Assembly: GCA_020629735.1 (NCBI GenBank)
Contig: JAHDCT010000001.1
Span: 1-42,914, forward strand
Source: a bacterium
GTDB taxonomy: Bacteria; Patescibacteriota; Gracilibacteria; Absconditabacterales; Absconditicoccaceae
Direction of reading: 5' to 3'
Length of the DNA: 42,914 nucleotides
In this document: piece after piece, positions 1-35,324 of the stretch
How positions within the stretch are numbered: position 1 is the first letter of the stretch
Layout: each line of letters begins with the position of its first letter
Translations under genes and position numbers: made by a program
Notes under the pieces: generated by a model
Database searches by the model: none
What the model was told of the DNA's origin: nothing
What the model saw: the letters and a program-made list of their open reading frames with translations, nothing else

Positions 1-720
1 TCGAAATAGAACGAAAAATGATTTAGAGATAAAGGTCATGGAATATGGCAATAAACACCTTAGAGAATGACCTGTTAGATTGAGTATGAGACTGTACGAT
101 GAATGTTGAATCAAGATACATCAATCAACTGTATACAGGATCTTGAAAAGAAAAGGTATTAGATATTACGAGGAGTATGCTAGAAGTAGAAAACGTAGGA
201 AGAAGAATAGGTTGTATGCTTTGGACACACCATGAGTTCAGGTACAAGTTGATACTTCTTTCCCTTACTGACGTAAGAGAAATTTAGTGATATATAGTGC
301 TATAGATGATTGTACGAGGAAAGTATATTCGAGAGCTTATAGAAGGCATTGTTGAGTACAACGAAAAGATTCATTATGAGCTTAAGAAAGAATATTGAGT
401 ATTGTATACAGACTATAAGAACAGATCAAGGTACAGAGTTCAGTGCTACTATTAGTGATTGGTTGTGAGCAAGATGAATTAAACATATCAAGAATGAAGC
501 CTATCATCCAGAGCACAATGGGAAAGTTGAAAGATATCATAGGACAATGAAAGAAGAAGCAATTAGTAAACGAGATCCAGATATAACATTACAGGAAGCG
601 AATTATCTGCTCCGACATCGAATGGCCTATTATAATAGATCCAGAAGACATACCTGATTATGAATGAACTGACTAACTCCTAAACAAAAACTGAAAAATG
701 TAACCTTGATTCTGCAATAG
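1..720 (+). mobile_element. IS481-like (rve/DDE) transposase gene remnant, 5' end cut by window edge, internally frameshifted
   Basis: With UGA=Gly, frame 2 (2..~342) reads ...STVYRILKRKGIRYYEEY...LDTPGVQVQVDTSFPYGRKRNLVIYSAIDDCTRKVYSRAY. Frame 1 (~343..720) reads ...IQTIRTDQGTEFSATISDWLGARGIKHIKNEAYHPEHNGKVERYHRTMKEE...YYNRSRRHTGLGMNGLTPKQKL, with stop TAG at 718-720. The D..D..E context is typical of IS481/IS3-type integrase-core transposases. Frame 2 hits TAA at 383-385 and frame 1 has TAG at 340-342, so the two halves need a frameshift. Element ends were not identified. Confidence 0.8.
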
Positions 721-2167: not shown

Positions 2168-2197
2168 TTGACAAAAAACAAGTCAATTCTATATACT
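2168..2197 (+). promoter_or_regulatory. sigma70-like promoter of Cys-rich protein gene
   Basis: TTGACA (2168-2173), 18-nt spacer, TATACT (2192-2197). The ATG at 2204 lies about 7 nt after the -10, so the mRNA would be leaderless or nearly so. Confidence 0.5.
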
Positions 2198-2203
2198 GTG
2201 TTT

Positions 2204-3922
2204 ATGAATTATACAACTAAAGAAGCTTACCTAGCAATCTCAAAACAATTTAGCGACCCAATTCTTGAGCGAAAATCTTGTCGCCTTTCGTGAAAAGAGT
2301 TTCCTCTTTTTTCTTCTGAAAGAGATCGTTTTAAGAAATTTTCTTATGATTTGTGAAACTCTCGCATCACTATTCCTTACCCAACCCTCTGCCCTGAGGA
2401 AAGAATAAGAAGAAGATTGATGTTTAGAAATGAGAGGGTCTTATATAAAAGAAACTGTGATTTCACCTGAAAGGAAATTATCTCAATTTACTCACCTGAA
2501 CACAAACAGGTGGTGTATAAACGCGATATATGGTGGTCAGATATGTGGGATGCTATGAAAACTGGTGTTCAAATGGATTTCACAAGACCATTTTTTGAAC
2601 AATTTGCTGAGTTGAGAGAAAAGACGCCTACTCCGAATGTTTTTATTACGGATAGTGAAAACAGTGAATACTGTAATCATGTAGGTGAAATGAAAAGTTG
2701 TTTTATGGTTACTGCTGCTTGGAGAAATGATATGTGTCTCTATTCTTCGAATATTCGAGATTGCGTTAACTGTTGTGATTTACTTGAATGTTCACACTGC
2801 CACTGGAGTTATGAATGCACAAACTGTGAACATTGCTACAAACTTTTTTGGTCTGAATCAAGCGAGCACTGTAAAGACAGCATGTTCCTTACTGATTGCC
2901 TTTCTTGCTCTTCTTGTCTCTGATGCTGGTGACTAGAGCATAAGGAATACCATATTTTTAATAAAGCGAGCACCAAAGAACAGTATGAAAAAACAAAAAA
3001 AAGACTTCTTAGCAGTAATGAATTTCGCCAGCAATTTCTACAAACATATCTTTCTCTTCGCTCTGTTCTTTTACAACATGAGAGATGAATCAAATGATCA
3101 GATGCATGTTTATGAGATAAAATAACTGACTCGAGTAATTCGCTTTTTTGTTTTAACGTCTGAGATGCTCAAGATTGTTTGTATTGTGAAAATGGCGCAC
3201 TGTGATTCACTGATTGCCAAGATTGACTAGGAATCTGAGTGAATAGCTCACTCATGTACGAGATCATCGATACTGGGCTCAACAGTACGCGTTGTTTTTT
3301 CTCTGCTGTATGACACTCTTGCCCCAACTCAACTTATATTTGGAACTGCCACACCTCATCCTATCTTTTTTGATGTGCAGGATTACGCGATAAAAAATAC
3401 TGCATTCTCAATACACAATATACTCAACATGAGTTTGAGACTCTTGTGCCTAAAATTATTAATCATATGAAGGAAACCTGAGAACGAGGTGAGTTTTTTC
3501 CTGCTTCTTGCTCACCTTTTTGCTATAACGAAACAAGAGCTCAAGATTATTTTCCGTGCACTAAAGACCAGGCAGTGTGAAATAATTGGAAGTGGCTAGA
3601 CTCATTCCCTGATCCTAAAGTCCCACAATGAATAGAAACGCTCTGTAAGAAAAATTTCAACTCTCTCCAACGAGATACTTTGCAACAAGACTCTAGTATT
3701 TACAAAAAAGTATTTAGCTGCGAAAAAAGTTCTAGACCTTATAGAATACAACCCGTTGAATTAAAGTTCTACCACACACTTTGATTACCTCTTCCTTCTT
3801 TGCATCCAGATAAAAGACACTTAGCGAGATTCTTGAAAAGGCCTGGGAGGTCAGCTGGTGTTACTTATGCATCAAATTGAACTGAAAAACTCAACTTTCT
3901 TAAACGTTCTCATCACTTTTAA
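2204..3922 (+). CDS. Cys-rich tandem-repeat protein, paralogue 1 (572 aa), function unknown
   Basis: Frame checked line by line and only TGA interrupts it. N-terminus ...CRLSGKEFPLFSSERDRFKKFSY...PYPTLCPEERIRRRLMFRNERVLYKRNCDFTGKEIISIYSPEHKQVVYKRDIWWSDMWD. Centre has degenerate Cys-containing repeats ...CVNCCDLLECSHCHWSYECTNCEHCYKLFWSESSEHCKDSMFLTDCLSCSSCLGCWGL...CAGLRDKKYCILNTQYTQHEF. C-terminus ...YRIQPVELKFYHTLGLPLPSLHPDKRHLARF. Paralogous to 39820..41325 and 41338..42819. Confidence 0.85.
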
Positions 3923-7217: not shown

Positions 7218-7964
7218 CTACTTACCTTTGAGCATGTATCCTCAATCAACAAGGATATTTTCACCGGTAATATATTTTGCTTCATCTCAGGCAAGAAATA
7301 AAGCTACAGGTGCTATGTCATCCGGGGTTCCCAATCTCGAAAGGAGTATACCTCAATCAATTCTTTCTTTAGTCTCATCTGACCATTTCTGTGACCGGCC
7401 TGTTTGTATATATCCTGGAGATATCGCGTTACATCTAATATTGTCTTTCCCATAAGTTTTTGCGATACTTCTTGTGATACTTAAGACTCACGCTTTAGCT
7501 GCTGCATATGTTATACTACTTATCGTCGAAAGCTGAGGTATTCACTTCATTGAAGCTATATTGACTATACTTCATCCTCATTTTTTTTGCATAGCTGGAA
7601 TGACTGATTGCATACAGTATAATGATCATAAGACATTCACCTCTCGTTCAGCCAAAGATTTCTTCCCATCAAATTCTTCTATTTTCTTTATATCTACCGT
7701 TTTGACTCCAGCATTGTTTATCAAACAGTCTATACACCCATGATGCTTAATATATTCTCATATTTCCTTTTTTACTGTCTCCTGATCTGATATATCAAAA
7801 AACAACTTATCTGATCACTCAAGATCTTTGTGGATATTTTTTAGCTCATCAGTATCAGTCTTGGAATGCACAATCACTTTCCATCACTCTTGATGAGCAA
7901 GTTGTGCAATTCATTTACCAATTCATGAATCAGATCCTGTAACTAGGATAGTTTTTTGAGACAT
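7218..7964 (-). CDS. short-chain dehydrogenase/reductase (SDR, FabG-like; 248 aa)
   Basis: ATG at 7964, TAG at 7218-7220, length divisible by 3. Motifs VTGSDSGIGKGIA (TGxxxGxG), LINNAGV, YAAAKAG (YxxxK), NAISPGYI and VDGGY. Several of the conserved Gly residues are encoded by TGA. Confidence 0.85.
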
Positions 7965-9295: not shown

Positions 9296-10678
9296 ATGGA
9301 AAATCCTTCTGATAAGCTTTGAGCACTACATCAAAACAACAGCGATTTCAACGATAAGGTTGAAATTTTTAAGCTTATCTGCTCAGAGGCGCTTACTTTT
9401 GATATAGAAGCACTTCTTACACAGTTGCTTGAGAAAAATAAATTTAATAGTGATAGTCTTTACTGATTTACTGGTGTTATTACTGAAGCGAATATTATTA
9501 ATTATTATGAAGTACAAGATGTATACGACACATATTGAGAAGAACTGAGCATAGAAGATCTCTGAGTGTTTCATACACTTCGCTACTTACCCAGAGATTA
9601 TCTTACTTTTCTTCATACGGTTCATGCACTATCATCAAATGTATCAAAGCATCCTCTCCATCACCAACTCTTACATTTACCACATGAGAGCAGAGATGCG
9701 GCTTTAGCAGAATTCTTCTATATCACCTCACCGATAACTGCTTGGTTGCATTGAAATCTGTTTCAGTTACGAGAAATCTTACAAGAAAACATTATTCAGA
9801 ATACGGACTGATCTACTACGGTCTACCTTCCCTTTGGAGCTAAAAGAGAGCGTCAGACGGGGTATACCTATAATCCTACTACGCATAGTTCTCACGCATT
9901 AAGCTCTCAACAAACTTCTGCTCTTGAAGAGATTTTACCAGGTCAGATGACGATTGATGTTTTTTCTACTAATCCATTAGCAAAGGAAATGTTATTTGGT
10001 TTTGCCTATCAAGAGTGAACCGCTTATTTAAAGCAGATATCACTAGAGACTTTTTGAAGGGTTGAATATAAGATTGACGAAAAACAGATGAAAGCCTGTC
10101 TTGAAATTCTAAATACTTCTGAATCTATTCAGGAAAGCTTTCAAATGCTTGATAGTGCATTTGTAAGGGCAAATACCCTTTCTCAGTCGCATGCATATAA
10201 TGCTTTGTTCTTAGCTATACAGGAGAGACTCAATAAGAGCTTTGACTGAGTTTGATCTGAGCCAGAGTGAGCTGTACACCATACCATCGAGGCACTTTTG
10301 GATATAGATAGCTGAGCATATGACTATAGCTGATTTTTGATATATCAAAATCCTGCTATAATTTCCCACTTAAACTCATTGATCAAAACATATTCTCATG
10401 GGTCACCTACTCTTATAGGAATTTCTTACTCTGAAAAAGATAAAGCCATTGAAATTGGTATTGACAAGCTTACTCATCATTGGGACTGAGATGATACGTG
10501 AATTACCTTAGATATGTTTTGATATAAGTGAAAAATCTTTCCGTTTAAACATTTTATCCCTTTCTTGTGAATTGAGGATGGGAAATTTATGATTGAGCAT
10601 GAAGGGGGAATATCCTGATTTACTCCTGAGGATATTATTCAGTTGTTTGATGTATTGTATATTATTGAGAAGCAGTAA
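9296..10678 (+). CDS. hypothetical protein (460 aa)
   Basis: First ATG (9296) after an in-frame TAA at 9227. TAA stop at 10676-10678. Frame checked line by line, with many in-frame TGA. No family recognised. Confidence 0.8.
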
Positions 10679-10786
10679 GTTTTTGTAAAAAATATTATTT
10701 CTAGTTGAGTCAATACGATTTGCATAAAGTTTTAAAAAACATATATTTTGCTTTTCTGTATTAAAATCAAAAATGCAAATTTAATT

Positions 10787-11317
10787 ATGTTAAGTAAAAA
10801 AAATAAAAATAAAATAGGTAATACCTCAGTAGGTATAGATTTAGCATCTTTAGAAGCTGCCTTACTAAAAGGTGGATTTGTTCCCTGTGATGGGAAACGC
10901 AAGATTTTATTCATCGTTGGTATTAACCACGATTCGAAAAATCATAAAAACAACTTTGAATTTGGCAGTTCAAGGTTTGTGCTTAAAAAACATGCCACAA
11001 GTGCCCCCCTAACTTCCTTTGATGTATTCGATGAGTCGTTCAAAGAGGAGACTGCAATAAAAACCACCATCACTAAAGTAATTATTCCAGATACTAAGCG
11101 CTTTACAAAAAAGCAAAAAGGTATTGTGGCATTTGGTGAAGGTACACTCATCTGGAACAAAGGAGTAGTTGAGTTTACATCAATTTCACTAACAAGAAGT
11201 AGGTCTATCGAAGAAGGTAGCCTTCACAAATTAAAGTGGTACGACGGCTTGAATGAAGTCGCTACAAGAAGAACTTCATACGCATCATTTTATGATTTTT
11301 TATATGATGTGAAATAA
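10787..11317 (+). CDS. UGA-free small protein, paralogue A (176 aa), possible Gly-Gly-type leader
   Basis: ATG at 10787 (MLSKKNKNKIGNTSVGIDLASLEAALLKGGFVPCDG...KGIVAFGEGTLIWNKGVVEFTSISL...). Shares ALLKGG(F/I)xP and G(I/V)(V/L)xFG(E/K)(G/A)TLxW(N/S)xGx(V/I)xF with 11510..12004. 13 Gly, none encoded by TGA. Confidence 0.75.
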   Translation: MLSKKNKNKIGNTSVGIDLASLEAALLKGGFVPCDGKRKILFIVGINHDSKNHKNNFEFGSSRFVLKKHATSAPLTSFDVFDESFKEETAIKTTITKVIIPDTKRFTKKQKGIVAFGEGTLIWNKGVVEFTSISLTRSRSIEEGSLHKLKWYDGLNEVATRRTSYASFYDFLYDVK

Positions 11318-11340
11318 ACTATCCTTTTCTATTTTTCAAA

Positions 11341-11420
11341 GTACAGAGAAGACCCGTTAAGATATTTATCGGAAGGGAAATACTGGTTCGACCTCATAGG
11401 AACGGACCAGTCTTTTTTTT
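11341..11420 (+). terminator. conserved 3' UTR element plus intrinsic terminator (copy 1)
   Basis: GTACAGAGAAGACCCGTTAAGATATTTATCGGAAGGGAAATACTGG..., then stem ACTGGTTCG (11382-11390) / CGGACCAGT (11403-11411), then T8. Near-duplicate of 12016..12096. Confidence 0.7.
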
Positions 11421-11509
11421 ATAGAATAAAAATATTGTCAATATATGTTGTATATAGGAGGTAAAAATGTATTAGTAAAGTTTCCTGTACACAATAAATA
11501 GAAACAAAT

Positions 11510-12004
11510 ATGATAATACCAGGTACCACAAGTATGTCAGTATCAATAGGGAATATGATGCTTGGCATTGCTTTACTAAAGGGCGGCATTATGCCGGATA
11601 ATACAGAGCATACGCTCAATTTCGTCTCGGGCGTTGGCTTTGAAGACGATATAAATAAATTCTATTTTAATAGTAGTTGTTTTGTAAACACAACAAAAGG
11701 TAATAATACTTTTTTAGAGTTTACGAAAAACTACACTCAGGGTTCAGTCAATAACCTTGCAGCTCTTCAAGTTGAGATGTGTGAAACACCATCTTTCAAA
11801 GACGAAGAAGGGGTCTTGGTTTTTGGCAAAGCGACGCTTACCTGGTCTGATGGCAAAATAAAGTTCGCTAACATGGAGATAGAACAGTATGCACCCATTT
11901 CCATATCTGATTTAAATAAGCTTCACAAACCAAATAGCTTAGGTAAAATCAGTAACAATCTTAAACAATTTTTTGAACTACACGGCGTTGCCGTATCTAA
12001 ATAA
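11510..12004 (+). CDS. UGA-free small protein, paralogue B (164 aa)
   Basis: ATG at 11510 (MIIPGTTSMSVSIGNMMLGIALLKGGIMPDNTEH...EGVLVFGKATLTWSDGKIKFANMEI...). 14 Gly, none encoded by TGA. Paralogue of 10787..11317. Confidence 0.75.
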   Translation: MIIPGTTSMSVSIGNMMLGIALLKGGIMPDNTEHTLNFVSGVGFEDDINKFYFNSSCFVNTTKGNNTFLEFTKNYTQGSVNNLAALQVEMCETPSFKDEEGVLVFGKATLTWSDGKIKFANMEIEQYAPISISDLNKLHKPNSLGKISNNLKQFFELHGVAVSK

Positions 12005-12015
12005 TTTTACGAAGT

Positions 12016-12096
12016 GTACAGGAAAACACCCGTGAAGAAAACTTTCGGAAGGGAAATACTGGTCTGCCATGATGTGGTTGGGCCAGTCTTTTTTTT
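12016..12096 (+). terminator. conserved 3' UTR element plus intrinsic terminator (copy 2)
   Basis: GTACAGGAAAACACCCGTGAAGAAAACTTTCGGAAGGGAAATACTGG..., then stem ACTGGTC.. / ..GGCCAGT with G-U and compensated positions relative to copy 1, then T8 (12089-12096). Overlaps the stop codon of the convergent gene 12095..13777. Confidence 0.7.
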
Positions 12097-13777
12097 ATGG
12101 GAGGATGTGGGAGCCTGGTTTTGAGATGAAACCGATAGATATAGAATTTTTCGCTTCATCAAGCGAGACTGTAAATTCATATAATCAACCATGACATGAA
12201 ATTGGGAGCTCTCTTGAAAGCTTATTTCTCAGATAATTTTGAAGAGGAAGAATTATCTTGCTTATCATCTCATTTTTATTTTTACTATAACTTGAACGAG
12301 GGAACTCTGTATTAAAAACATCTCTTCAAGGTGAGTTAATTAATTTCAATAGTATATCTACAGTTGCAGACTGAGATTGAATATCCTTTGAACTTAGCTT
12401 TTCTCATAAACAATATATCTTTTTTGAAATCCCATCTAGCAGAATATCTGAACTCGACTCTTTTATAATATCTTTCATTTTCACTGGTTTTTTGAATCCA
12501 GCATCATCATAAAACAAAACACTATTTTTATTTAAATAATCAGAATACAATCAACTACCTAAATCCTGCTCAATCTTAATTCACTCTTCATCCACATTCT
12601 CCTGCGACGAATCGTAATCTACGTACAAATGCGTTCAAAGACTTAAATTAATCTCTTTACATATTTTTTCTAACCTTTGCACCACTACTCAAGATTCAAC
12701 AATAATTAAAATTCTTCAATATCAATCTAAAGTTGTTAATGGTAAAGTTCAAAATCTTTCAACTCATCAAATCTCTTGACTCAACTTCTGATGAAATTCA
12801 ATACCGAATGAAGTCATCACATCATTACTCATATGTTGTAAGAATACTTTATGTGATATTCAAAATAGTCTATTCAAATTTTTCTTGCTTGGAGATGATA
12901 TATACTGATTTAACAAATAAAATAACTTTAGATATTTTTGATTTAAGATATCGTCATCTTTTCAGAAAGTATCATAAATTTGTCCGAGTAAATTTTTACT
13001 AAAATAATCATCAAGTCACTCAAAATCTTCATACTTAGAGCTGATTGTTGAGTTCTTTGGTAACTTACCTCATCAATCAATGATAAAAAATTCAAATCAC
13101 AAATATTGAACTTCATTAAATACTCACTTAAATTCTCTAATATTACTCTTTATGTAATTTACACTTATATTTGATCACATATCATTAATACATGTTGCTC
13201 ACAAATTCGCGACCGGAAAACAAGTTTCTTTAAGACTTGCATAAACATGAAATCAGCTATCGTTTCATAACAACCCAACCTCTTTCCTCATTCTAAAACT
13301 TAATTCAGCTATTCTTTTGATTAAATCTACCGTGGGAAACCTGAAATTTGTTTTTTCATCTTTCAAGTAAATAAATAAAGCAGACAATAAAATAAAAAAC
13401 GATGAAGTAAATAACGATCATTGCCCTCTTCTAAATTCAGAAAAAAAATTAATCTCACCAAAATCCACACTATAAATTCATGCATATTTCAAAATAAGAT
13501 GATTTAACTTTTTTGCGCTACTACTACCGTACAAATCGTTTACCTTCATTTTTTCTATAGTTCATTTACTTATATTACAGTATACAAAGTCGCCCAAACG
13601 TGATTTACTACCTTTTTTAGAAAATCAAAGATATATTTTCCTATTTATCTTCCAATATACTTCCGCAGTTAATATATCTTTTTTTAATCACACCATTCAC
13701 CATGGTATTACTTGCGGCAGACTAAGTACTATAGAATTTTGTAAATAAAAGTTACTTTTTTCTTTATCAATTGACAT
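12095..13777 (-). CDS. hypothetical protein (560 aa), possible C-terminal OmpR/PhoB-like winged-helix domain
   Basis: ATG at 13777, TAA at 12095-12097, walked codon by codon. C-terminal ...DGISKKIYCLGEKLSSKDIQSQSATVDILLKLINSPGRDVFNTEFPRSSYSKNKNEMISKIILPLQNYLRNKL loosely follows the trans_reg_C pattern (target, K-E/D, LL..L, then helix). No receiver domain is evident. Confidence 0.8.
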
Positions 13778-13933: not shown

Positions 13934-16900
13934 CTATGCGTCAGCTCATGTAGCTGGGAGTAATGCTGGAAGTTCATTATCAAGAACTCACGCTGATCCA
14001 TGTTGCTCGAAGTCGAATGCTTCTAGTTCGATTTCTTCTTTCTTTTCTTCTATGATTGCAATAATCTTGTTGTCTTCTTCTGTGTATACGATTGGTTCTT
14101 CTTCTGGTTCTTCGATTACTTCTGGTACTGGTTCTTCTTCTGGCTCTTCAACCACTTCTGGATCATTACTTGGAGGCCTTGAACCTGTTCATCCTGTATC
14201 TTCTTTACTCATAAGTACTACTTGAGCTGGATCGTGATCATCTTCGTCTCCTCCATCGAATCCACTTTGATCGATTACGTTGTCGTCATCTAGGTCATCT
14301 GTTTCACCTGCTTGGTTAAAGTTTCCATCATCTGGTGTACTATCGATATCAAATCCTCGATCAGCTCCGTTATCAGAACTAATTTCAGCCCAGTTTCTAA
14401 ATACTTCGTTTCCTTGACTTGCGTCTACGATGTATGTTACTGGAATCGTTAGTGAATCACCTGCAGCAAGTACATAGGTCATTGAGTCTGCTGTTTGGTC
14501 TCCGTTATCTGTCCAGTCTGCATCGTTCAAGATCAATCCTACTGGGATATAATCTGTTACTACGATGTCTTCTGCGTATGTGTTACCTTGGTTTACAATA
14601 GTAATTTCAAAGTCAGCGTCTCCTTGGTCAATTACGAATGGCAATTCTCCTGTGTATTCCTTGTAAAGAGCTAGATCATGGTATGGATCTACTACAAGCA
14701 ATGCTGGATCATGGTCATCTTCATCTCCATTATAGTTATCAACTACGTTGTCTGTGTTGTCGTATACGTCGTCTGTTTGATCAGAGTTTGGTGTACTATC
14801 AACATCGTCTCCGTCGTCGTTACTAATTTCAGCCCAGTTCCATAGTTCTCCAATGATATGGTCATCTACGGTTACTGAGATATCTACCGTTACTCCTGTA
14901 CCTGGTTCTAGTGTTCCTGGTACCGTGTATGTAGCTGTTCCATCATCATTTACTCCCCAGTCTCCACTTGTTACGGTCAGTCCAGCTGGTACGTAATCAG
15001 TAATTACAATATCTGATGCTGGCATATTACCTTGGTTGAATACTTCGATAGTAAAGGTAGCAGCTGATCCTGGATAGAATGGTCCATCTGTTACAAGTAC
15101 TTTTGTAAGAGAAAGATCATATACGTCTCCAATTGGAAGTACTGCAGGATCGTGATCATCTTCATCACCTCCGTTCTTACCGTCTTCATCAATTACTCCA
15201 TCGTCATCAAGGTCGTTTGTTTCACCGTCTTGGCTGAAGTTTGTTGCGTCTGGCATACTATCTACGTCGTCTCCAAATGCTGCACCGTTATCTGCGCTAA
15301 TTTCTGCTCGGTTCACTACTTCTCCTGTAAGATCGTTTTCATAGCTGTTTACTACAAGTCCGATTGTTACGATTTCTGATTCACCTGGAGCAATCATGTC
15401 AGCAACTGTGTGAGTCGCTGTTCCATCTCCATTGTCATTCCAGTTTGCATCTGAGAGAGACAATCAAGCTGGGATGTAGTCTGTAATTTCTACTCCATCA
15501 GCAACGATATTTCATTGGTTTGTTACTCTAATTTCAAAGGTAGCTACATCTCCTGGCTCTACCACATCAGTCGTCACAAGGTATTTCACAAGTGCTAGAT
15601 CGTAATACGGATCAACTTCGATTGACGCAGGATCATGGTCATCTTCGTCTCCGTTTTCGTTGTTAATTGTATCGTCTTCTGGACTTTCTGCTAGCTCATC
15701 ATTTATTGTATCTGGTGTAGAATCCCAGTCACCTCCTAAGTAAGCTCCATCATCTGAGCTAATTTCAGCCCAGTTTGTTACCGTACCGAGGATGTAATCA
15801 TTTACTTGAAGATCGATGCTTACTGTGGTTGATTCTCCTACTGCAAGTTGATCAGTAATAGTCATTGCAGCTTCAGTAGCTGAAACATCATTCCAATCAT
15901 CGTCAGCTAATGTCATTTCAGCTGGAATGTAATCTGTAATGGTAAACATATCTGCTGGTACTGTACCTTGGTTTGTTACCGTAATATCAAATGTTACGAT
16001 ACTTCCTGGGTAGAATGGTCCTTTACTTGCAAGTGTCTTCACAAGTGCTAGATCATAGTAATCAAGCGTAATCATTTCTGGGTCATGATCATCTTCATCT
16101 CCTCCATTCTTACCGTCTTCAGTATTAATGTTGTCATCGTCTAAGTCGTCAGTTTCACCATCTTGGTTAAAGTTGATTGAATCTGGCGTACTATCTACAT
16201 CTGATGTTCCGTATGTTGTATCACTATCGTCGTCAGCAATTTCTGCCCAGTTGATAGCTGTACCTGTTTCTGTTCCGTTGTTTACGAATGAAACCATAAT
16301 TTCAGCTGTTTCTCCTGGTGCCAATGGTCCTACTGCATTGTTGTACGTAGCCACTCCTGCTCCAGCAGTCCAATTAGTATCTGCTAGGTCAAGTCCTACT
16401 GGGTAGTAGTCTACAAGTCCTCCGGCTGGGATTGTTGCGTCAACCGTACCTTGATTTTCAATAGTGATTACAAAGGTTGCTGTGTCTCCAATTCCGTATG
16501 CTGATGGTGCTCCTACTGGCAATGTCTTGATAAGGGCAAGATCATACACATCAATAATAATTTCAGCTGGATCATGATCATCTTCATCACCTCCATTTAA
16601 TCAATCTTGATCAATTACATTATCATCACTAAGATCATCTGTTTCCCCATCTTGGCTAAAGTTTTCTGAATCTGGTGTACTATCTGTATCACTTACCGTT
16701 GATCAATCAAACCCTAAGAATGAACTAACTTCTGCCCAATTAATTATACTTCCTGCTGGGGTATCCATATCTACAGTAAACTCAATAGTCACTGTATTTG
16801 ATGCACTTGCAGCTAGGTCGAATGGTTTTACTAATGTAGCTGTTCCATCACCATTATCATTCCATGCTGTATCATTTAATGTTAATCAAACTGGAATATA

Positions 16901-19900
16901 ATCTATTATTTCTATTGCTGTAGCGTCCATGTTCCCTTGATTTGTTACCGTAATCTCGAAAGCCACTGAATCCCCTGGAGTTACCACGTCTATTCCTGCT
17001 GCTACTACCTTAGCAAGAGCCAAATCATATACTGGTGGAGATACACTAATTGTTGCCGGATCGTGATCATCTTCGTCTCCATTTTCATTCTCTACAGTAT
17101 CATCTTCTGGACTTTCTGTTGTTTCGTCATTGATTGTATCTGGTGTACTATCAGCATCATTTCCATCATCTACACTAATTTCTGCCCAGTTGGTAATATC
17201 TCCATCTATCACTGTTCCATCAAAATCGAAGACAATGTCTACTGTCCCTGTTTCTCATGCTGCTAATGCTCCATAGTTATATGAAGCTGTCCCATCTAGG
17301 TTATCTGTCCATCCTGAATTTGTAGCGTTCAGTGTTAATCATGCTGGGATATAATCTGTGATTGTGAACCCTGCACTATCGATTGTTCCTTGATTTATTA
17401 CTGAAATAGTAAAGGTTACTGTATCTGTTATAAGATAAGGACTGTTATCTGGGTTAGCTACTTTTGTAAGTGCTAGATCGAATACTGGAATTACTACCTC
17501 AGCCGGATCATGATCATCCTCATCTCCTCCATTTAGACCATCTTGGTCAGTTACTCCATCATCATCTAAGTCATCTGTTTCTCAATCTTGATTGAAGTTT
17601 GTGCTATCCGGCGTACTATCCGCATCACTTACCGTTGACCCATCAAACCCTAAGAATGAACTAATTTCTGCCCAGTTAACAATACTACCTGCTGGCGCAT
17701 CTGCATCTACCGTAAATTCAATAGTTACTGTATTAGTTGCACCTGCAGCCAGATCAAATGGTGTCGCTAAGGTAGCTGTTCCATCTGCGTTATCTGTCCA
17801 TGTTGCATCATTTAGTGTTAATCCTGTTGGCATATAGTCAGTAATTGTAACTGCTGTAGCGTCCATATTACCTTGGTTAGTAACTGTAATATCAAAGATT
17901 ACTGGATCTCCTGGTAACACCTCATTGGTTCCTGCTGGTGTCGACACCACCTTTTCAAGGGCTAGATCGTATACTGGTTCTTCGGTAAGCGTTTCTTCTA
18001 CAGTCGAACTATTATTTGTTAATATTTCTTCTGTACAAGTACATGCTTCTGCTCAGATTTCCATCTCCCAAGAATATTCATTTAATACTGCAGCATTAGC
18101 TTCAGCTGTTGCTGATATAGACATTGAAATATCAGTACTAATTGTTTCACCTCAAGATACAGGGATATTCGTCCAGGTAATTACTCATGGGACTGATGTA
18201 TCTGGTACTACCCCATTTATTTCTGCTACAATTGGATTTTCTAGAACACCACCGTATGTATCTGTCAGCGTCACTGTTCAAGGTCTTGAATCTGGATTAC
18301 TTACAGAAATGGTATACGTATGAGTGCTTCAAGCAACGATCGCTGTAGAATCATTTGTTCACATAGTTTTTGATCAGGTTGGCAGCGGTGGTGGTGGTGG
18401 TGGCGTATACGTGTTTTCTATAGTTCATGTGTCTTCTGCATTGTTATTATCTGTTACATCTACTACAATTACTCCAAATCCGTAATCATATCATACTGTT
18501 GATTCGAAATCAAAGGTTGCTCAATTTGGTGCATTTGAACTAATAACAAATTCGTGAGTCATAGTAACACATTCTCATGAAGTAAGAGACATATCATTTG
18601 TCATAATCTCAGCTCCTTGAATGACTACTGAAGCACCCGCTGGCTCTCATGTAGTACTTACGTGACTTAGAAATTGTGCGTTATATGATACTGTATTAGC
18701 AATATTAGTCATATCAAATGCACTATCATTACAGGTAATTGACTCATATAAAACCGTCTCTCATGGTACATATGCACTCCCTCAAGCAGGTGGAGAAACC
18801 GTTGTTCACACAGAAATATCTTGACCTGGTCACTCAGCACATGCACTTACATCCAATGTCGCTGTTGTTGTATTATCATCTCCAGGATTTGTTCCTCATG
18901 GAATTATTGACTCTACTTCTGGATCCCATGAATATGTATCATATGAACATCCAACTGTATTACTCGTTGCCGCACATGGATAATAATCACTGAAACCTGT
19001 TGTATCAGTTCATTGACTCATGGAAGATGAGACGTGTGCAGAATTCGTATATGTTTCAAGAGCTCAACTTGCTGGACAGACTGGAATCAATTCGACAACT
19101 ACTTCCATAGTATCTGCAACATCACAGGTAAGAAATCAAGTAATTGCTACTCAACTGCTTCAATTTTGTGCTATGTCTGCGTCTACAAAAGGAATTCATC
19201 ATGCATACCTCACATCAGTCCCTCACACACTTACTGTTGTAGAGTTTGCAGCTATCGAATCTGCTAGATACGTATTATATTCTTCATAAGTAAGAGTCGA
19301 ATAAGCTCAAGTATCAGCACATACATCACCATCTGATCAACGTACTCCTACTTCAAGACAATCATTTCTTGTATAGAAGAGTTCTGGTTCATATACTGGC
19401 CCCGCTAGAGCTCAAGTATGTTCTGCTAATACTTCAAACTCGAAATCTGCTGCTGATAAGTTTGCATTTGCGTAAGTAGGAATTATCTTCGCCATTGTTG
19501 ATAGAAATGAATCATATCATACAGCATCCAATGCCTCATTAAGCAGTCCAGTGTTAATATTTCAAAAGAAAGTCTGCGCCAAAGAACTAGATAAAATACC
19601 ATTTAACGCATCCAACTGAGTTAGTGTTTCTGCGTCAGCAAGAGCTGGAGTATATCCGTTTTGCAGGTAGAGATTATAGATTCTATTATACTGACATTCG
19701 TACATCCAAGAGTATACGTTTTGATACCCCGCTCAAGCTCATGCTTCATACCATTGTGCATATAAACTATAAGCATCAACAATTGCTGATATGTGGGCTG
19801 AAACAATCGCTTCGTCCTCAGAGCTTCAATTCGCAATATTAGTAGCATAGTATGTTTGAATTCATGCCCAATATGCTTCTAATACAGAAGCTTCAATTTG

Positions 19901-21943
19901 TAGTATTTCATTAAAGAAACTAGGATCATCTAAGATAGCATTTCATGTCGGAACAGATGTAAATCAACAACCTCACGGAGTATATGCTCCTTTAGCAAAG
20001 AAGAGAGGATCTGGAAAGTCTGACCGTAATTCAGGCGCCTCTGTTAAAGGAGGAAAGATTGAAAATGCAACCGTACCTCATCCAAAACTGTCGTATCTCA
20101 CTTCTGTGATTCATTCACACTCTACTTTTTGATCTTCAGCATATGCAGTTGTTAACCATTCTACATAATCAGTATCCTCTAGATAGGTAAATTCATCATT
20201 AGAAACTACTCCATTAAAGATAAAGTTATCCCCCCAATCATCACCAATATATCAATACGTCCACACAATTGGGTCAATTTCAGCAAATGACGCATTAATT
20301 GTCGCGTGAACTGGCTCTAACGGATTAACCGCTCATGAAATTGGAGCTCAACTTGTATCTGTAAATTCCTTACTATTCACCGCCCAATCATGTTGAGCAG
20401 ATCCTCATGGAGCACCTGGACATGAGTTCGCTGTTATACTAACTGTAGCCTCGCTTGCATTGTTACCTACATTTGTTGTATTTACAGCGTTTCAAAGCAT
20501 GATTTCAGTTCATCACGCTTGTGCTCCAGACCTTACTGTTAAGATTCAATCGTTTGCCTCAAAGGTAATATCTGAAAGGTTTTCAACCGTACCTGGATTA
20601 CATCATGCTTGTACATTATATGTTATCTCAATAAATCACTCATCAGTTCCTCCAGGATTCCCATCATCAGCTGTTAAAGAAATATCTCTAAAAACTAATG
20701 TATCCGTTGGATTAGGAGGTCATGCCATATAATAATCATATGATGTTAGTCAAGAAAAGTTAAATTGAGCTTCTGGCATATCAGCTCAAAGATGAGAGGT
20801 GTGAGAAGCATAAGAAAGAAATCCTCATCCTGAAGTCATCTGATCAACTATTACAATATCAGTTAGGTCTTGACTTGAGTTATTGCTATAGTCTAGTCTA
20901 AAAATTACCTGCTCTCCATCTGAATATGTCGTAGCTCATGTTCCTGCAATCGATTTTACAATATCGATATCAATAGGAGGCTGAGTTAACTGAACCTCTC
21001 ATGTATTGTTCCCACCTGGATCCGTTTCTGTACTCCAGTCTGTAAGGTATAATACTCAATCTCAAGTTGCAGATATATCAAATCTACCTATTTGAGCATA
21101 ATTATTAATTTCAAGAGCTCAGTTGACTAGCACTTCAAATGTTACGGTAATTGTTTCTCCTGCTGCTCAATCTACTAGGGGAACTGAATCCCATACCAGC
21201 TGATCAAAATCACCTATTGCCTCTACAACTGTTGGGGCAGCTAAACCAGGAATAGTACTTGTATATGAAACGTATTGTAAATTCCGATCTTCAAAGTAGT
21301 CAACTATTCTTATATCATTTTCAAGGTATCCTGAATTACCAACGGTTAGTGTAAAATCAACCATATCTCCTTGTGACACAACTGTTGATGTCGTTGTTTT
21401 ATCTAACGATAAATCATAATCATATGATGGAGGAGGCGAATATACTATTGCACTCGATGCTCCTTCTCAACTATAACTAGCTCCTGGTAAACACCCAGCA
21501 CAGTCTGTACTTTCGTTATTTGGAAGTGCTAGCGATCACGTATTTGAGATAGTATCTCACGCTACTGCTCATCAATCAACTATAAAATCTACCGTGATAG
21601 ATCCAGATTCATCTGCTGCCAGATCTAGTCAGCTCCACTCAAGCGTTCATGCCCCAATTGTATCTGGAGTTACACTTGCTGTGTCAAACGTCAAATTAGA
21701 TCAGAAGGTGTCAGTGATTGTAACTCAGTCTGCTGTTGCAGGTCATGAATTTACATAATCAATCTGATACGATACCGTATCTCAAGGACTAACATCTCAC
21801 GTTGTTATTAACGTTTTCGTAATTTGCAGATCGTTTGGATACGATTGGGCAAATACAAGATTAGAAAAAAATGCTTGTATCAGAAGCATTGTTATTGCAA
21901 ATCCTCTCAGCAAATTTGCAAAAAATCAGTTTTGTTTGACCAT
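13934..21943 (-). CDS. giant secreted repeat (DUF11-type) adhesin-like surface protein, 2,669 aa
   Basis: All five standard-code fragments (14189.., 15512.., 16886.., 17582.., 21167..) share one frame. I scanned every inter-fragment segment and found only TGA, with no TAA/TAG, from ATG at 21943 to TAG at 13934-13936. N-terminal signal peptide MVKQNGFFANLLRGFAITMLLIQAFFSNLVFAQS. At least 8 modules of ~130-140 aa (YDLAL.K...PG....F.I.V.NQG...A....ITDY.P.GL...NWAEIS.D.G..D.DSTPD...DD....GGDEDDHDPA). A non-repeat middle region spans ~18.3-20.3 kb and includes a PPPPPPLP linker. Confidence 0.9.
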
Positions 21944-22925: not shown

Positions 22926-25900
22926 TTAATTGCCTTGTTCACCCCCTGTCGGAAAGAGGATGTTGTAGGCTTTTTCAGCATCAGATACAGCAGAACGAAA
23001 TTTGAGGATTGCCTCTTTCATTAAACGCTGAGCTTCTGCCTTATTGTTTGCAGTTGTGTTTTCAAAGGTTAATTCGCCATTGTTGACAACAGGTATTGGA
23101 ACATTGAAACCTTGCTTTTGAGCAGTACTTATTTGGTAATCCGTTATAAAGCGGTCTTCATAAAGGTTTGGTATTTCACCTGTCATGCGCTCATATTTAA
23201 CTATTTCATAAGGTGGTATCCCCATTACTAAGTTAAAAATCGCCTCGTCAACGGTTCTTCCCCAAGCTAAGTTATCACCTTCAGCAGCAATAATTAACTT
23301 GATTGATGGCAACTCTGCCTTTCCATCTTCGAAAGCTGACACATAAAAAGGCTCAATAAAAACCACCGTAGAGTCAATAGGTATGGTTATCATGTTACCA
23401 CGAAGTACCTTCGACCCTTTATCATCGAGCCAACTAATTTGAGTTGACATCAATGTATTTCCTGAAATCAAAGACTCAATTTTCCATGGAGCATACACAT
23501 TTAAGTCCATTGGGTAATAGAGCAACTCTAAGTCAAGATAGGTTTCATAATCAGATGAACCTGCAAGAATAGCTCGCAAAAAATCTCTTGGCTCTCCATC
23601 CGACTGGGGCTCAGGAGTAAAATTAATAACAGTATTAAAACCAAAATGCCCATGAGCATTTAACATCATTTGTCTTGGAACCATCTGTGTTCTCTTACCT
23701 AAGTATTTCTCATGTCCTACCTCCCAACCATAAAAGTTAGAATAAAACTCTTCAGGCTTATCTTGGTGGTATCTTTTAAGCATATACTTTTGCGCATAGA
23801 TGTAATCCAAAGGATAGATGAGATGTTCTAACACATCTGCAGGCATGCTCTCAAAGGGTTTGAACATTCCCGGCAGAATTTTCATAATTGTAGTCATTAT
23901 TGGATCCTCTTCAGGATACACAGAATAGAAATCTACTGTTCCATCATAGCTATGGACTATTGCCTTCGCTGATGGACGGATGTAGTTAAATTTCTCGTCC
24001 TTCGTAGAGTCCAATTCTGACATATTTAGATGATTTGAGTAAGGGAACTTATCTGATTTGGTGTATCCATGCACCATCCAAACCAAAGAGCTATCCTCCG
24101 TAATTATTGGATGTGCATCTTCGTCCCAATCAATCATTGGACATAAAGCCTCAACTCTTTCCTTAACCTGTCTACGCAACAAGATTCTTGAGTTCTCATT
24201 AATGTTTGGCTGCCCAAATACTAACTTAGAGTCGTACTCATATCCAAAAAACCACTTCTTCCAACCTGAACCAATATTAATTCCTGCCTTACCCTTATAG
24301 ACAGAACGCCTTGTTTTATTTCCATCAGGAAAGTCATATTCTTTAATGTTTGTATTAACATAGAAGAATTTTCCTCCCTTGTTGTCCGCCTCTTGAAAAT
24401 AAATCTTTGGAGATGGTTTAAGTTGTTTGAAGATTGGAAACCCTGTTTGTAAATCATACTCATTAGCTACCATTGAAAAGAAACCGTCCCCATGACCATA
24501 CTCGTAATACTGAGTAATATAGGTCTTAGGATCTAAACCTTCCTGGCTTAACTCAATAGGAGCATACATCATCAAAACGCTATCTTCTCTACATATATCA
24601 ATATCACCCACAATGTACTGAGGAAATTTGGTTACGTTCTCAGTTACAATCCTACTTGTCGCACTAAAGTCCAAAACTCTTGCATTACCGATAAGAACAC
24701 GATTTCTCCGCACACTTTCGATAGTCAAGCCGGGCTTATAGGCAACTTCCTTTTTGGTCAACCTACTTGATAAGCCAAAACCTTCAAGGGTAGACTGAAT
24801 ATTATTATTGATATACTCTTTTTCCACATTACTCTCATTTGGCGCAACAACATAACTTTGAATCAATCCTGGCACAACAAGACTGTTCAAAAGCAATTGT
24901 ATTCCCACGATATTTACTATAATATTTATAGGAACTGAGTATTCATCAGGCTTATGCTGTCCCCAAAAGAACCAAACTAAAGCATAGATTCCTGCTGTTA
25001 CTATACCTACAATAATCCAATGGGTGTACGCACCACCTGACATAATCAACGGCAATGCAATGGCGAAAATTGCTATGCCGAAAGTTGCATGTGACAAGTT
25101 ATGAAACAACTTGCTTTTTGACTTCACAAAAGTTATTAAAAGCGCAATAATAGACAAAGCTAAATAGATAAATTGGGAGGCTTTGCTAACAGGAATTCGA
25201 ACATTTTTATCGGTGTAACCAACTCCGATCATATTCAAATTAGTACCCGCTTCATGACTCGAAGAAAGTAAATTGTAGAGGTCTAACTGAACGCCATAGA
25301 TGGATACTAAGCACCAGACAGAAAACCAAACTCCTACTGACTTAGGAAAATGATCAAGGAACTCCTCTGTATCCCAATTGTTTCTGCTTGTTTTGACACC
25401 ATGGTAAATAAAAGCCATAAGTCCCATAACTACAGCAAACCATAACACACTTGAGACAAGCATATCTCTAACAGACAAATCCATCAAATAAAATGCGTTA
25501 TCCAAATTGAAAATTTTATCTACTGAAGCTCCCATTTCTCCGTAGTTCCAAAATTTCAATAATTCAAACCATTTTGAGCTTAATGTGCCTGCAAAAAGAG
25601 ATGCGAGTGAAATGCCAACCAACCCTGATACTATACCATTTAGATAGGGTTTTAATTCCTTATTTTTTTTATATTCAATGCTTTGGTTGAACAAATAAGC
25701 AGAATACACGGTGAATAAAGTTCCCAGCACCGAAAAAATAAGAAAGAATGCCTTAAGTTGACCAAAATTCTGCAACCAAAAGACATCTTCACGACCAAGT
25801 TTTTTAAACCACCAAAAGTCAGTTAGGTAGCCTGCCAACAGATCATGGATAATTATCCCGACTAATGTGACTATAGGTAAAACCCAATGCCACCATCTCA

Positions 25901-26024
25901 GCCAAGACAATTTCGTTTCCTCACTCTCTTTATTAGAGTTCGCTTTCTTATCTCTACGATAAAAAGCCCACGCTCCTGGGACAAAGGAGAGAAGGAAAGT
26001 TGTTAAGAAGATAGTTAAATACAT
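22926..26024 (-). CDS. UPF0182-family large polytopic membrane protein (1,032 aa), UGA-free
   Basis: Uninterrupted even in the standard code. N-terminal third has about 7 TM helices (...FWWFKKLGREDVFWLQNFGQLKAFFLIF...), followed by a large soluble domain. Overall layout and length match UPF0182 as I recall it. About 69 Gly by my count, none encoded by TGA. Confidence 0.85.
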   Translation of the reverse strand: MYLTIFLTTFLLSFVPGAWAFYRRDKKANSNKESEETKLSWLRWWHWVLPIVTLVGIIIHDLLAGYLTDFWWFKKLGREDVFWLQNFGQLKAFFLIFSVLGTLFTVYSAYLFNQSIEYKKNKELKPYLNGIVSGLVGISLASLFAGTLSSKWFELLKFWNYGEMGASVDKIFNLDNAFYLMDLSVRDMLVSSVLWFAVVMGLMAFIYHGVKTSRNNWDTEEFLDHFPKSVGVWFSVWCLVSIYGVQLDLYNLLSSSHEAGTNLNMIGVGYTDKNVRIPVSKASQFIYLALSIIALLITFVKSKSKLFHNLSHATFGIAIFAIALPLIMSGGAYTHWIIVGIVTAGIYALVWFFWGQHKPDEYSVPINIIVNIVGIQLLLNSLVVPGLIQSYVVAPNESNVEKEYINNNIQSTLEGFGLSSRLTKKEVAYKPGLTIESVRRNRVLIGNARVLDFSATSRIVTENVTKFPQYIVGDIDICREDSVLMMYAPIELSQEGLDPKTYITQYYEYGHGDGFFSMVANEYDLQTGFPIFKQLKPSPKIYFQEADNKGGKFFYVNTNIKEYDFPDGNKTRRSVYKGKAGINIGSGWKKWFFGYEYDSKLVFGQPNINENSRILLRRQVKERVEALCPMIDWDEDAHPIITEDSSLVWMVHGYTKSDKFPYSNHLNMSELDSTKDEKFNYIRPSAKAIVHSYDGTVDFYSVYPEEDPIMTTIMKILPGMFKPFESMPADVLEHLIYPLDYIYAQKYMLKRYHQDKPEEFYSNFYGWEVGHEKYLGKRTQMVPRQMMLNAHGHFGFNTVINFTPEPQSDGEPRDFLRAILAGSSDYETYLDLELLYYPMDLNVYAPWKIESLISGNTLMSTQISWLDDKGSKVLRGNMITIPIDSTVVFIEPFYVSAFEDGKAELPSIKLIIAAEGDNLAWGRTVDEAIFNLVMGIPPYEIVKYERMTGEIPNLYEDRFITDYQISTAQKQGFNVPIPVVNNGELTFENTTANNKAEAQRLMKEAILKFRSAVSDAEKAYNILFPTGGEQGN

Positions 26025-32845: not shown

Positions 32846-34387
32846 TTAAAGGAGGTTTGAATTTGGACTCACTCAGTCTGTTATAATCACATTGGGTGCA
32901 ATCTTCACCTTTGGAAAGAGATTCTTCTTAGCTAATTTAAACCGCTTGTCAAATTCGTTAGGCACCTTTCTCTTAATATCTTTAATAAAATTTCTAATTC
33001 CATGTAATACGTAGGCAACTTGCATAACATCTACCTCTCATCCAGTTGTTAGATACTTTGTACTTAACTGCTTCGGGTTTTGTGCTACTAGTTTTGCAAA
33101 TGCTATATAGTTGAGCATTTTTTTCTCAGCAATACCCAAGCGACCATCAGGTCAAATGGTAATTCAGGTAATTTCTTTAGCAGTGGCTGATAATGGTGTC
33201 CACATTTTTTCTTTTTCAAACTTCAGCTTTCGATTATTTTGCCCTTGCACAATTTTTATCAAACGTAGTCTAAGCTGTTCAAACTGGTCTTCATTTTCTG
33301 CTCAATCAACTCATTTCAGGGACTTGTCAAGTATTCAAATTTGTGTAAAGATTTTCTCTTTGTGGCTGTTGAGTTTCGCTTTTATGAATTCATTATCACG
33401 GAGACCTTCTAATCACTGCTTAATTAAAATGATTGCATTGTAGGTACGACGCTTCGAGTCTTGATCTTCAAATATTTTTTCTGCAGGCGTTTCTATATTT
33501 ATAAATCAAACTAACAACTGCTCTACTTGTAAGAGTATTGAATCTATTTCTTCTCATACCGTAGTTGGCTCATTTGAATTATTTTTTACTTCCTCTCCTA
33601 GTTTCTTTATTTTCTTTATCACTTTATGAACAGCCTTTGAAAATTCTCAGAAGTTTTCAAAATATTTAAAGCTGATCGCCATATCATCAATATATCTTGT
33701 GAACATAGGATTTACTAAGATCGAATTCTTATCATTGAGTGCTCAAATGATTTGACTATCCGTCTTTCACATAACGATATTTAACATACGAGCACTTGTA
33801 GGTGATCATTGAGGTAACTTTCCTTCATGAGAAGTTAAGGTTGTTAGCACATCAACAAACGTCTTTCTTTGTTCACTATCTAGATATGGATATGAAAGAT
33901 CAAATATTTTTTCTAATCATCCGTTTAAATTTGCATTAATTCTTCCTGCATCTACTGAAGGGTATGCACTTGCGATATCAGTTGTTAAAAGATACCCAGA
34001 CTGTCTATGAAAATTAGCGTTTTTACTTGGTCTGGTTCCTAGTTCTCATCATTGCACTGCTGTCGAAACAGGCACTTGTCTCAAGTTAACTAATAAGCTT
34101 TTTTGCAATCTTTTTAGCGGAACACTTGGTGCTGATATCCTTCTTTTCTCTTTACTTTTTCCTCACTTATCAACGAGAAAATCAAAATACCCTCATGTTA
34201 ATTTCTTTTCCACGTCACTTCCTCTGAGAGTAACCATTCCTGTTGATTTTGGGGTTAATCTTTGTTTTAGCGTTTCTTTTAACGAGTTTTGAGAACAATT
34301 CAAGAAATGACAAAGTGCTTTCAAGACTTGCTTATCTCTCAAAATTGGCATAATTTCTTTTGAATCTTCCCATTTTATAGCTTCCAT
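32846..34387 (-). CDS. retron-type reverse transcriptase (513 aa)
   Basis: ATG at 34387 (a TTG at 34414 is also in frame), TAA at 32846-32848, frame scanned line by line. Motifs: KRRISAPSVPLKRLQKSLLVNL; GYLLTTDIASAYPSV; GKLPQGSPTSARMLNIV; FTRYIDDMAISF (YxDD, 33683-33694); AKEITGITIGPDGRLGI (33165-33173, resembling the VTG motif of retron RTs). No maturase/endonuclease tail. Confidence 0.85.
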
Positions 34388-34800: not shown

Positions 34801-34806
34801 CCTCAA

Positions 34807-34834
34807 GCTATATTTATTACTAAACTTAAGTCAA
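34807..34834 (-). promoter_or_regulatory. sigma70-like promoter of unit 1 / RT
   Basis: On the - strand: TTGACT (34829-34834), 16-nt spacer, TATAGC (34807-34812). The same arrangement and flanks (ATATTGACTT...TATAG.TTGAG) occur at 35283..35310. Confidence 0.5.
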
Positions 34835-34856
34835 TATACTTTTTTCATTTATCTAT

Positions 34857-35276: not shown

Positions 35277-35282
35277 ACTCAA

Positions 35283-35310: not shown

Positions 35311-35324
35311 TATATTCTCATTCT

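Follow-up and report, generated by a model that had tools for sequence, protein, structure and literature searches.

What are two small neighbouring genes, both free of the codon that their genome has reassigned and both enclosed by closely similar flanks, and what keeps them that way? The question is raised by genes A and B (Table 1) on contig JAHDCT010000001.1, a metagenomic contig, complete at 42.9 kb, whose source is an algae metagenome and which is covered at 3-5x depth in three DNA sequencing runs; its whole length of 42,914 nucleotides (nt) is referred to here as the window. The window was read with genetic code 25, in which UGA specifies glycine. Open reading frames (ORFs) of at least 100 amino acids (aa) total 17,764 aa with table 25 versus 3,987 aa with table 11, a short-chain dehydrogenase/reductase (SDR) gene at 7218-7964(-) has TGA at the conserved glycines of its TGxxxGxG and VDGG motifs, and contigs with homologues of one neighbouring gene also have in-frame TGA in LepA. 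Code 25 is known from Gracilibacteria and Absconditabacteria (PMC10746230). The explanation that we favour, at a probability of roughly 45%, is that A and B are lineage-specific, code-neutral transcription units that share a conserved architecture of pairing of the 5' with the 3' untranslated region (UTR) and of termination. The locus is made of ordinary parts, namely paralogous orphan genes, terminators and UTR pairing. Its unusual features are a codon anomaly confined to glycine, in which the reassigned codon is avoided, and a predicted, covarying helix that joins the two ends of each mRNA.

A first-pass annotation of this DNA had pointed out a near-identical element of ~80 nt, with a stem and T8, after each gene. 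The two copies of this 3' element (11346-11422 and 12022-12098, ~77 nt) are indeed conserved, at 77-80% identity, but the main reason for the conservation of its start had been overlooked. The starting sequence, GTACAG.GAA, is one arm of a predicted 12-bp helix, designated P1, whose other arm lies in the 5' leader of the same gene. With complementarity of at least about 10 bp beyond chance taken as the mark of 5'/3'-UTR pairing, 12 bp was found in each cassette. Eleven P1 pairs are common to both cassettes. Seven of these are invariant, two differ by one-sided changes (U-G/U-A and U-G/C-G), two differ by two-sided changes (U-A/C-G and U-A/A-U), and none is broken. Paired cells reached 92% with the arms in register, versus 38-65% when the partner was slid. 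When the duplex was compared with those of dinucleotide-shuffled leaders, z was -3.85 for A and -5.4 for B (p <= 0.001 for B); the same test gave z between -2.8 and +1.1 for the other 20 genes, and the longest leader/3'-UTR helices among the 22 genes tested were those of A and B.

Folding of the whole mRNAs (about 620-690 nt) also predicted P1, with a probability of ~0.98-1.0 when the 5' end was placed near the arm. For A, per-pair probabilities were 0.77-1.0 with a 5' end at 10730-10750; for B, nine pairs reached 0.99-1.0 and the three outer U-A pairs 0.39-0.86. Both folded mRNAs showed the same order of P1, a small hairpin (P2) and a terminator (P3), separated by linkers of 0-4 nt. The predicted P1 helix spans about 530-590 nt and is located 17-24 nt upstream of the start codon, which it leaves uncovered.

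Inverted repeats that bracket both coding regions, perfectly so in B, could alternatively act at the level of DNA, either as sites at which each coding region is inverted site-specifically, as an on/off switch, or as the terminal repeats of a small mobile cassette. We regard this as very improbable. As DNA, the repeats of A match at only 10 of 12 positions, and the two that do not match are both compatible with G-U pairing, which points to RNA. The arms covary between the cassettes and do not preserve a single recombinase-binding sequence, no gene for a recombinase or a transposase is adjacent (the sole insertion sequence (IS) fragment lies at 38-720), and the contigs from the three runs (3-5x depth) all have the reference orientation, without strand-switch joints. 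No informative variants or inversions were seen in these runs at that depth. Because the helix of A contains G-U pairs and because the arms covary and are not conserved in sequence, pairing in RNA rather than in DNA appears to be what the repeats reflect.

P2 and P3 occupy the remainder of the 3' element (Table 1). In both cassettes a 9-13-bp stem is followed by T8, as expected for an intrinsic terminator; a simple terminator scanner missed P3 because its stems carry bulges. The P3 stems of A and B are set apart by one double change and by four G-U changes that affect one side only, which bears out the earlier description of terminator stems varying by G-U and compensated positions. Ends with a hairpin plus a T-run are visible after about seven other genes of the window, and about eight of the 23 predicted genes show one. 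Coding of a peptide by the 3' element was rejected, as substitutions in it are not 3-periodic. In searches of Rfam covariance models, tRNA-Arg alone reached its gathering score in the window, and matches within 10600-12300 all had E >= 1. An exact 18-mer within the element, TCGGAAGGGAAATACTGG, is present in two copies in the window versus 0.03 expected. It is absent from IMG/VR, and all 21 matches in metagenomes were chance matches that lack the flanks of the element.

Short genes that are each followed by a similar structured element of ~80 nt call to mind the gene cassettes of integrons, which depend on an IntI integrase and carry an attC site with R''/L''-L'/R' organisation and a GTTRRRY core. 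The element found here is, unlike attC, an ordinary rho-independent terminator with UTR helices, and each gene apparently has a promoter of its own. An attC site was rejected: the window has no integrase, and GTTRRRY is matched neither by the GTTAAGA of the A element nor by the GTGAAGA of the B element.

The upstream regions of A and B align collinearly through AAAAATATT, GTCAATA, TTG(C/T)AT, a 16-nt spacer and TAT(A/T)(T/A)(T/G), and from TTG.AT to the CTGTA core of the 5' arm the distance is conserved, at 36 nt for A and 37 nt for B. A promoter scan of the A block returned the promoter-like TTTGCA-17-TATATT. From these sequences we infer that the blocks are promoters. If they are, transcription would start at or just before the 5' arm, and the AGGAGG...ATGTATTAG mini-ORF of B would lie in the promoter spacer and -10 box, outside the mRNA. 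The tiny ORFs that had been reported ahead of each gene do exist, and that of B does have an AGGAGG, but its distance from the ATG is 43 nt rather than 47 nt. A regulatory function for them was not sustained. No Shine-Dalgarno sequence was found upstream of any of the 23 predicted genes in the window (0/23), and the two mini-ORFs are not homologous, because they stand on opposite sides of the conserved 5' arm. The one upstream of A, ATGCAAATTTAA, is probably fortuitous; the one upstream of B aligns with the promoter spacer and -10 box, and regulation by mini-ORFs with Shine-Dalgarno sequences was rejected. The proposal of a self-contained module fared better, as each gene has a conserved leader, 3' element and terminator of its own.

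The two encoded proteins are paralogues, in agreement with the initial description of products of 176 and 164 aa that share an ALLKGG(F/I)xP motif near the N-terminus and an FG.(G/A)TL.W..G...F block near the C-terminus. BLASTP aligned them with 26% identity over 151 residues (E 2e-16). Nucleotide identity of the coding sequences is 43%, third codon positions are 35% identical, and 14 of 42 identical residues use the same codon. The duplication appears to be old, since at only 35% identity in third positions the synonymous sites look saturated. A and B would then stem from an old tandem duplication within a gene family that is confined to this code-25 lineage. Their flanks are much better conserved than their coding parts (77% for the 3' element versus 35% for third positions); the non-coding parts would be under the stronger constraint because they encode the mRNA architecture.

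A sceptical explanation is that A and B are two ordinary hypothetical genes, with flanks left over from duplication or gene conversion and a lack of UGA that is an accident of sampling. Only two copies exist and nothing related is found elsewhere, as this explanation would have it. However, third positions at 35% identity beside flanks at 77% form a mosaic of exact blocks and compensated stems that fits neither neutral decay nor a single recent conversion tract, and the codon anomaly described below has a P of ~1e-7 to 1e-12. We had already disfavoured this explanation and consider it highly unlikely.

None of the 27 glycine codons of A and B (13 + 14) is TGA, as had been noticed together with the use of UGA for about half of the glycines in neighbouring genes. 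The corresponding figure for the other genes is 389 of 884 (44%); single genes range from 31% to 75%, with the exception of the UPF0182 gene, where TGA is likewise absent. The probability of this absence is 1.6e-7, or 4.5e-5 if the lowest per-gene rate is used. Genes without UGA might simply have been common among the short genes, which would have undone the observation. They are not the norm in the window, because each of the five other genes of ~210 aa or less carries at least five TGA codons. With no in-frame TGA and with TAA stops, A and B are code-neutral, as first supposed, a property that is statistically real and that the short genes of the window do not typically have. The anomaly extends to the other glycine codons: GGY accounts for 22 of the 27 (81%) versus a background of 18% (P 1.7e-12; 0-33% per gene elsewhere, except 52% in the UPF0182 gene), and GGA for 2 of the 27 versus 51% of GGN codons elsewhere (P 1.7e-6).

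A comparison of codon usage within the window, which the first-pass annotation had recommended, confined the anomaly to glycine. The usage of non-glycine codons in A and B (z -1.3 and -1.5) falls inside the spread of other plus-strand genes, the share of C-ending two-fold codons (31%) is typical of genes in the window, and GC content is host-like. A compositional island was rejected on the basis of GC content and non-glycine codon usage, and general translational selection on the basis of the C-ending two-fold codons; without glycine the codon usage of A and B is ordinary, so neither can be the cause. Because synonymous sites appear to be saturated, the avoidance of TGA is probably either maintained by selection or inherited from a code-neutral source. 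The former would have acted for long in both genes; the latter would imply divergence in a code-neutral setting and later arrival.

The second of these possibilities can be stated as a rival that is compatible with the UTR architecture: the pair was inserted between two resident genes and took its avoidance of UGA from the source. A and B have 0/27 TGA, TAA stops and a choice of glycine codons unlike that of the host, the relatives of a 560-aa neighbour are found in another context without A/B, and an AGGAGG precedes B, in a genome where Shine-Dalgarno sequences are not otherwise seen. Moreover, code-11-compatible phages without in-frame TGA have been predicted to infect Gracilibacteria and Absconditabacteria (PMC10746230; Liu et al. 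2023). A and B resemble these phages in being without in-frame TGA, ending in stops other than TGA and being readable under either code. They differ in that the phages are code-neutral as whole genomes, whereas A and B are chromosomal orphans located between UGA-rich genes, with no phage hallmark. No match was obtained in PHROGs, INPHARED phages, IMG/VR, PADLOC or GTDB contigs, and the pair is not bordered by an integrase gene, by att-like repeats or by any other mobile gene. GC content and all non-glycine codon usage are host-like, and the saturated synonymous sites would mean that the genes either diverged before transfer or have long been resident without gaining a single TGA. The recent horizontal acquisition that had been suggested finds no support in the non-glycine codons, which are host-like, and no donor, phage or mobile-element relative was found. 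A code-neutral origin as such is plausible, although we consider an insertion of this kind doubtful compared with the lineage-specific transcription units that we prefer.

The UGA-free status of A and B is real, but it is not unique to them. A UPF0182 membrane-protein gene at 22926-26024(-), encoding 1,032 aa, has 0 TGA among 69 glycine codons, with GGY at 52%, and its overall codon usage is atypical (z -3.85). Its best homologues, at no more than 29% identity, come from organisms with the standard code (code 11), and at this identity a recent transfer is not demonstrable. On either side of the gene stands one half of a GC-rich 9-bp inverted repeat (TTGTCGTCC ~30 nt ahead of the ATG, GGACGACAA ~13 nt past the stop; p 0.007). 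Since UPF0182 also has an inverted repeat, complementary flanks are found in all three UGA-free genes of the window.

The proteins themselves are orphans. A word-indexed search of 5.8 billion clusters for homologues of A and B returned only the query itself, and an exhaustive hidden Markov model search of 1.84 billion protein representatives with an A+B profile found just A and B. Pfam, PHROGs, NCBIfam and PADLOC contained no relevant family at E <= 10, a profile search of the PDB gave no match, and neither did tblastn against 50,697 phage records (INPHARED) or pattern-plus-tblastn scans of IMG/VR and of GTDB species genomes and contigs. There is no third paralogue within the window, and protein B had no record in the contig index. 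AlphaFold2 models of A and B are of low confidence (predicted local distance difference test scores of 42 and 53) but concur in an N-terminal helix up to ALLKGG, two long beta-hairpins and C-terminal helices; a Foldseek search of the PDB with these models gave no match under E 0.4. Thus the profile and structure searches that had been called for yielded no match to a family or fold. Both proteins lack membrane segments and Sec-type signals. In keeping with the reported absence of a Sec-type hydrophobic core, the N-terminal hydropathy maxima are 1.35 for A and 1.8 for B, versus 2.2-2.4 for evident Sec signals on the same contig. The models suggest that A and B are soluble alpha/beta proteins with an N-terminal helix that reaches ALLKGG.

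Genomic context offered no relatives either. The upstream neighbour of A/B has no relative in GTDB genomes, and homologues of the 560-aa downstream neighbour occur in a different context, where A and B are absent and where the small genes have Sec signals and UGA codons and are no relatives of A/B. Related code-25 contigs (L024-L028, ~10650-13720(-)) contain tandem arrays of paralogues of ~190-205 aa that are convergent to lepA. These array genes have clear Sec signal peptides and UGA codons, and they are unrelated to A/B.

The ALLKGG motif had led to the proposal that A and B are secreted, bacteriocin-like or effector precursors, from which a leader of 26-30 residues would be cut after ALLKGG by an ABC exporter with a C39 peptidase domain encoded elsewhere in the genome. 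In double-glycine leaders, which are ~15-30 aa long and end in GG, GA or GS, positions -4, -7, -12 and -15 are hydrophobic and position -8 is acidic. In A, GG is at 29-30 with L at -4, A at -7, E at -8, L at -12 and G at -15, so that 5 of 7 consensus features are present; in B, GG is at 25-26 with L at -4, I at -7, G at -8, N at -12 and S at -15 (4 of 7). GG at 26-30 residues from the start corresponds to the usual length of a leader, A combines L at -12, E at -8 and L at -4 with GG, the region before GG is helical in both predicted models, and fast-diverging tandem paralogues would suit secreted products. The absence of a Sec signal and of membrane segments also fits, and because of it any export of A and B would be non-Sec. 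The same features, a predicted-helical N-terminus of ~26-30 residues up to GG and a hydrophobic residue at -4, are shared with substrates of peptidase-containing ABC transporters (PCATs).

Unlike PCAT substrates, A and B match no leader or bacteriocin profile in Pfam or NCBIfam at E <= 10. B fits poorly, as it lacks E at -8 and has no hydrophobic side chain at -12; at ~140 aa, the mature parts are bigger than is usual in this class; and no homologues exist that could show GG to be conserved. The residues just past GG are equally conserved and run into the predicted beta-sheet, which is what one would expect of a motif that belongs to the fold. A Pfam scan of the 23 main ORFs of the window revealed no C39 or ABC protein, as the first-pass annotation had itself remarked. 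A type IV pilin signal was rejected separately, there being no hydrophobic stretch after the G. The claim of a double-glycine leader and a bacteriocin found no positive support, and we judge it decidedly unlikely.

Returning to the lineage-specific transcription units that we prefer, each copy would be transcribed on its own from the promoter-like block, with a short leader. The first 12 nt of this leader and those of the conserved 3' element would pair to form P1, followed directly by P2 and by the strong intrinsic terminator P3. The role of this arrangement may be post-transcriptional, namely to hold the mRNA's 5' end and 3' UTR together. Ends tied in this way could limit the access of 5'-end-dependent and endonucleolytic RNases, or could couple stability to translation.

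There are precedents for such pairing. In the hbs mRNA of B. subtilis, a 14-bp interaction of the 5' UTR with the 3' UTR modulates cleavage by RNase Y and hence stability (PMC5737220; Braun, Durand and Condon 2017). The helix proposed here is of similar size (12 bp versus 14 bp in hbs), likewise connects leader and 3' UTR over a long range, and likewise belongs to a short monocistronic mRNA that ends in a terminator. The two differ in that there is no sequence similarity, the protein is unrelated, the 5' arm of A/B apparently lies at or near the 5' end, the A/B genome shows no Shine-Dalgarno sequences, and the role in A/B is predicted only. In the icaR mRNA of S. aureus, the 3' UTR pairs with its own 5' UTR and controls expression (PMC3868564; Ruiz de los Mozos et al. 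2013). The 3' UTR of A/B is similarly predicted to pair with the 5' UTR of the same mRNA, but that of icaR masks the Shine-Dalgarno sequence and recruits RNase III, whereas the A/B helix spares the start codon.

Several observations weigh against these transcription units and temper the probability that we assign to them. The covariation score of P1 was reached by 139 of 500 shuffles, and with just two sequences such statistics are weak. A test of the helix of A that allowed only Watson-Crick pairs was not significant (p 0.31). The predicted probability of P1 in A falls to 0.42 if a longer leader begins at 10700, and the upstream gene at 9296-10678 has no obvious terminator, so that read-through would lengthen the leader of A. 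No RNA runs that carry the sequence were found, so that the transcription start and the co-transcription of the two arms are predictions. Structure alone does not account for the exact 18-mer TCGGAAGGGAAATACTGG. Because the 3' element was absent from every other sequence searched, its conservation is seen in the A/B pair only.

Table 1. Positions of genes A and B and of their flanking features in the window.
Feature	Position	Strand	Remarks
A upstream conserved block	10687..10750	+	AAAAATATT, GTCAATA, TTGCAT (10720-10725), 16-nt spacer, TATATT (10742-10747)
A 5' arm of P1, CTTTTCTGTATT	10751..10762	+	complementary to 11340-11351: 10 Watson-Crick and 2 G-U pairs
A mini-ORF ATGCAAATTTAA	10773..10784	+	downstream of 5' arm; no positional counterpart in B
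ORF A	10787..11317	+	176 aa, isoelectric point (pI) 9.7, 0 TGA, GGY in 10/13 Gly codons, TAA stop
A 3' arm of P1, AGTACAGAGAAG	11340..11351	+	start of conserved 3' element
A small hairpin P2 (CCG.TAA ... TTA.CGG)	11354..11372	+	one U-A to G-U double change relative to B
A intrinsic terminator P3	11373..11420	+	A-rich tract, GC-rich hairpin, T8
B upstream conserved block	11428..11480	+	AAAAATATT, GTCAATA, TTGTAT (11448-11453), 16-nt spacer with AGGAGG, TATTAG (11470-11475)
B mini-ORF ATGTATTAG	11467..11475	+	AGGAGG at 11456; within upstream conserved block
B 5' arm of P1, TTTCCTGTACAC	11481..11492	+	perfect 12-bp complement of 12014-12025
ORF B	11510..12004	+	164 aa, pI 5.6, 0 TGA, GGY in 12/14 Gly codons (GGC 8), TAA stop
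B 3' arm of P1, GTGTACAGGAAA	12014..12025	+	12 Watson-Crick pairs with 5' arm
B small hairpin P2	12030..12048	+	same P1-P2-P3 order as in A
B intrinsic terminator P3	12049..12096	+	abuts stop codon of convergent gene 12095-13777(-)

The neighbourhood of A and B looks chromosomal, and the genes that flank them are UGA-rich and chromosomal. It includes genes for a TrmB-like regulator, the SDR, tRNA-Arg, phosphatidylserine decarboxylase, the UPF0182 protein, a reverse transcriptase (RT), a ceramidase-like protein and a 2,669-aa DUF11 surface protein, together with the IS fragment. The latter, at 38-720(+) at the contig end, has helix-turn-helix and rve_3 integrase-core domains in two overlapping frames. 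The DUF11 protein (13934-21943(-)) is secreted, with a Sec-type signal peptide and at least 10 DUF11 repeats, and its gene contains internal repeats of about 450-930 nt. The protein probably acts as a surface adhesin. Three Cys-rich proteins of ~500-580 aa without a Pfam match are encoded at 2168-3922, 39820-41325 and 41338-42819 (+), and the two that are adjacent have DNA repeats in common (40122-40186 and 41643-41707).

A further region of interest, at 32846-35330(-), contains the RVT_1 reverse-transcriptase gene (32846-34414(-)). On the RT strand this gene is preceded by two copies of a ~137-nt element (34715-34851 and 35191-35327), each located behind ATATTGACTT and with a nearly identical core of ~45 nt; three 21-nt tandem repeats (34976-35053) lie between them. 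The best match of these elements in Rfam had an E-value of 0.012, below the gathering score. They may be RT-associated non-coding RNAs. A template repeat/variable repeat pair of a diversity-generating retroelement was rejected for the repeats at the RT gene, as the mismatches are not A-specific.

A more far-reaching explanation, which we think has only a slim chance of being correct, is that A and B are resident genes kept readable for times when the decoding of UGA (and of GGA) fails or is subverted. Infection by a code-11-compatible phage, or an attack on tRNA-Gly(UCA)/(UCC), would be such cases, and end-paired, terminator-capped mRNAs would survive RNase activity under the same conditions. 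If this were true, A and B would constitute a 'code-robust' stress or defence module of an alternative-code bacterium, and the same logic might extend to the UPF0182 gene, the third UGA-free gene, whose flanks are complementary as well.

As A and B are free of UGA, they could be expressed unchanged in E. coli or B. subtilis, which makes both the proteins and the UTR module testable. If the pairing is real, the locus would represent a covarying 5'/3'-UTR end-pairing module in an uncultivated alternative-code bacterium. The control of mRNA turnover and translation is almost uncharted in such organisms, and this one apparently lacks Shine-Dalgarno sequences. The glycine anomaly shows that the reassigned codon can be kept out of individual chromosomal genes in a code-25 genome, and thereby bears on the tolerance of codon reassignment, on gene flow across code boundaries and on the code-neutral phages that have been reported.

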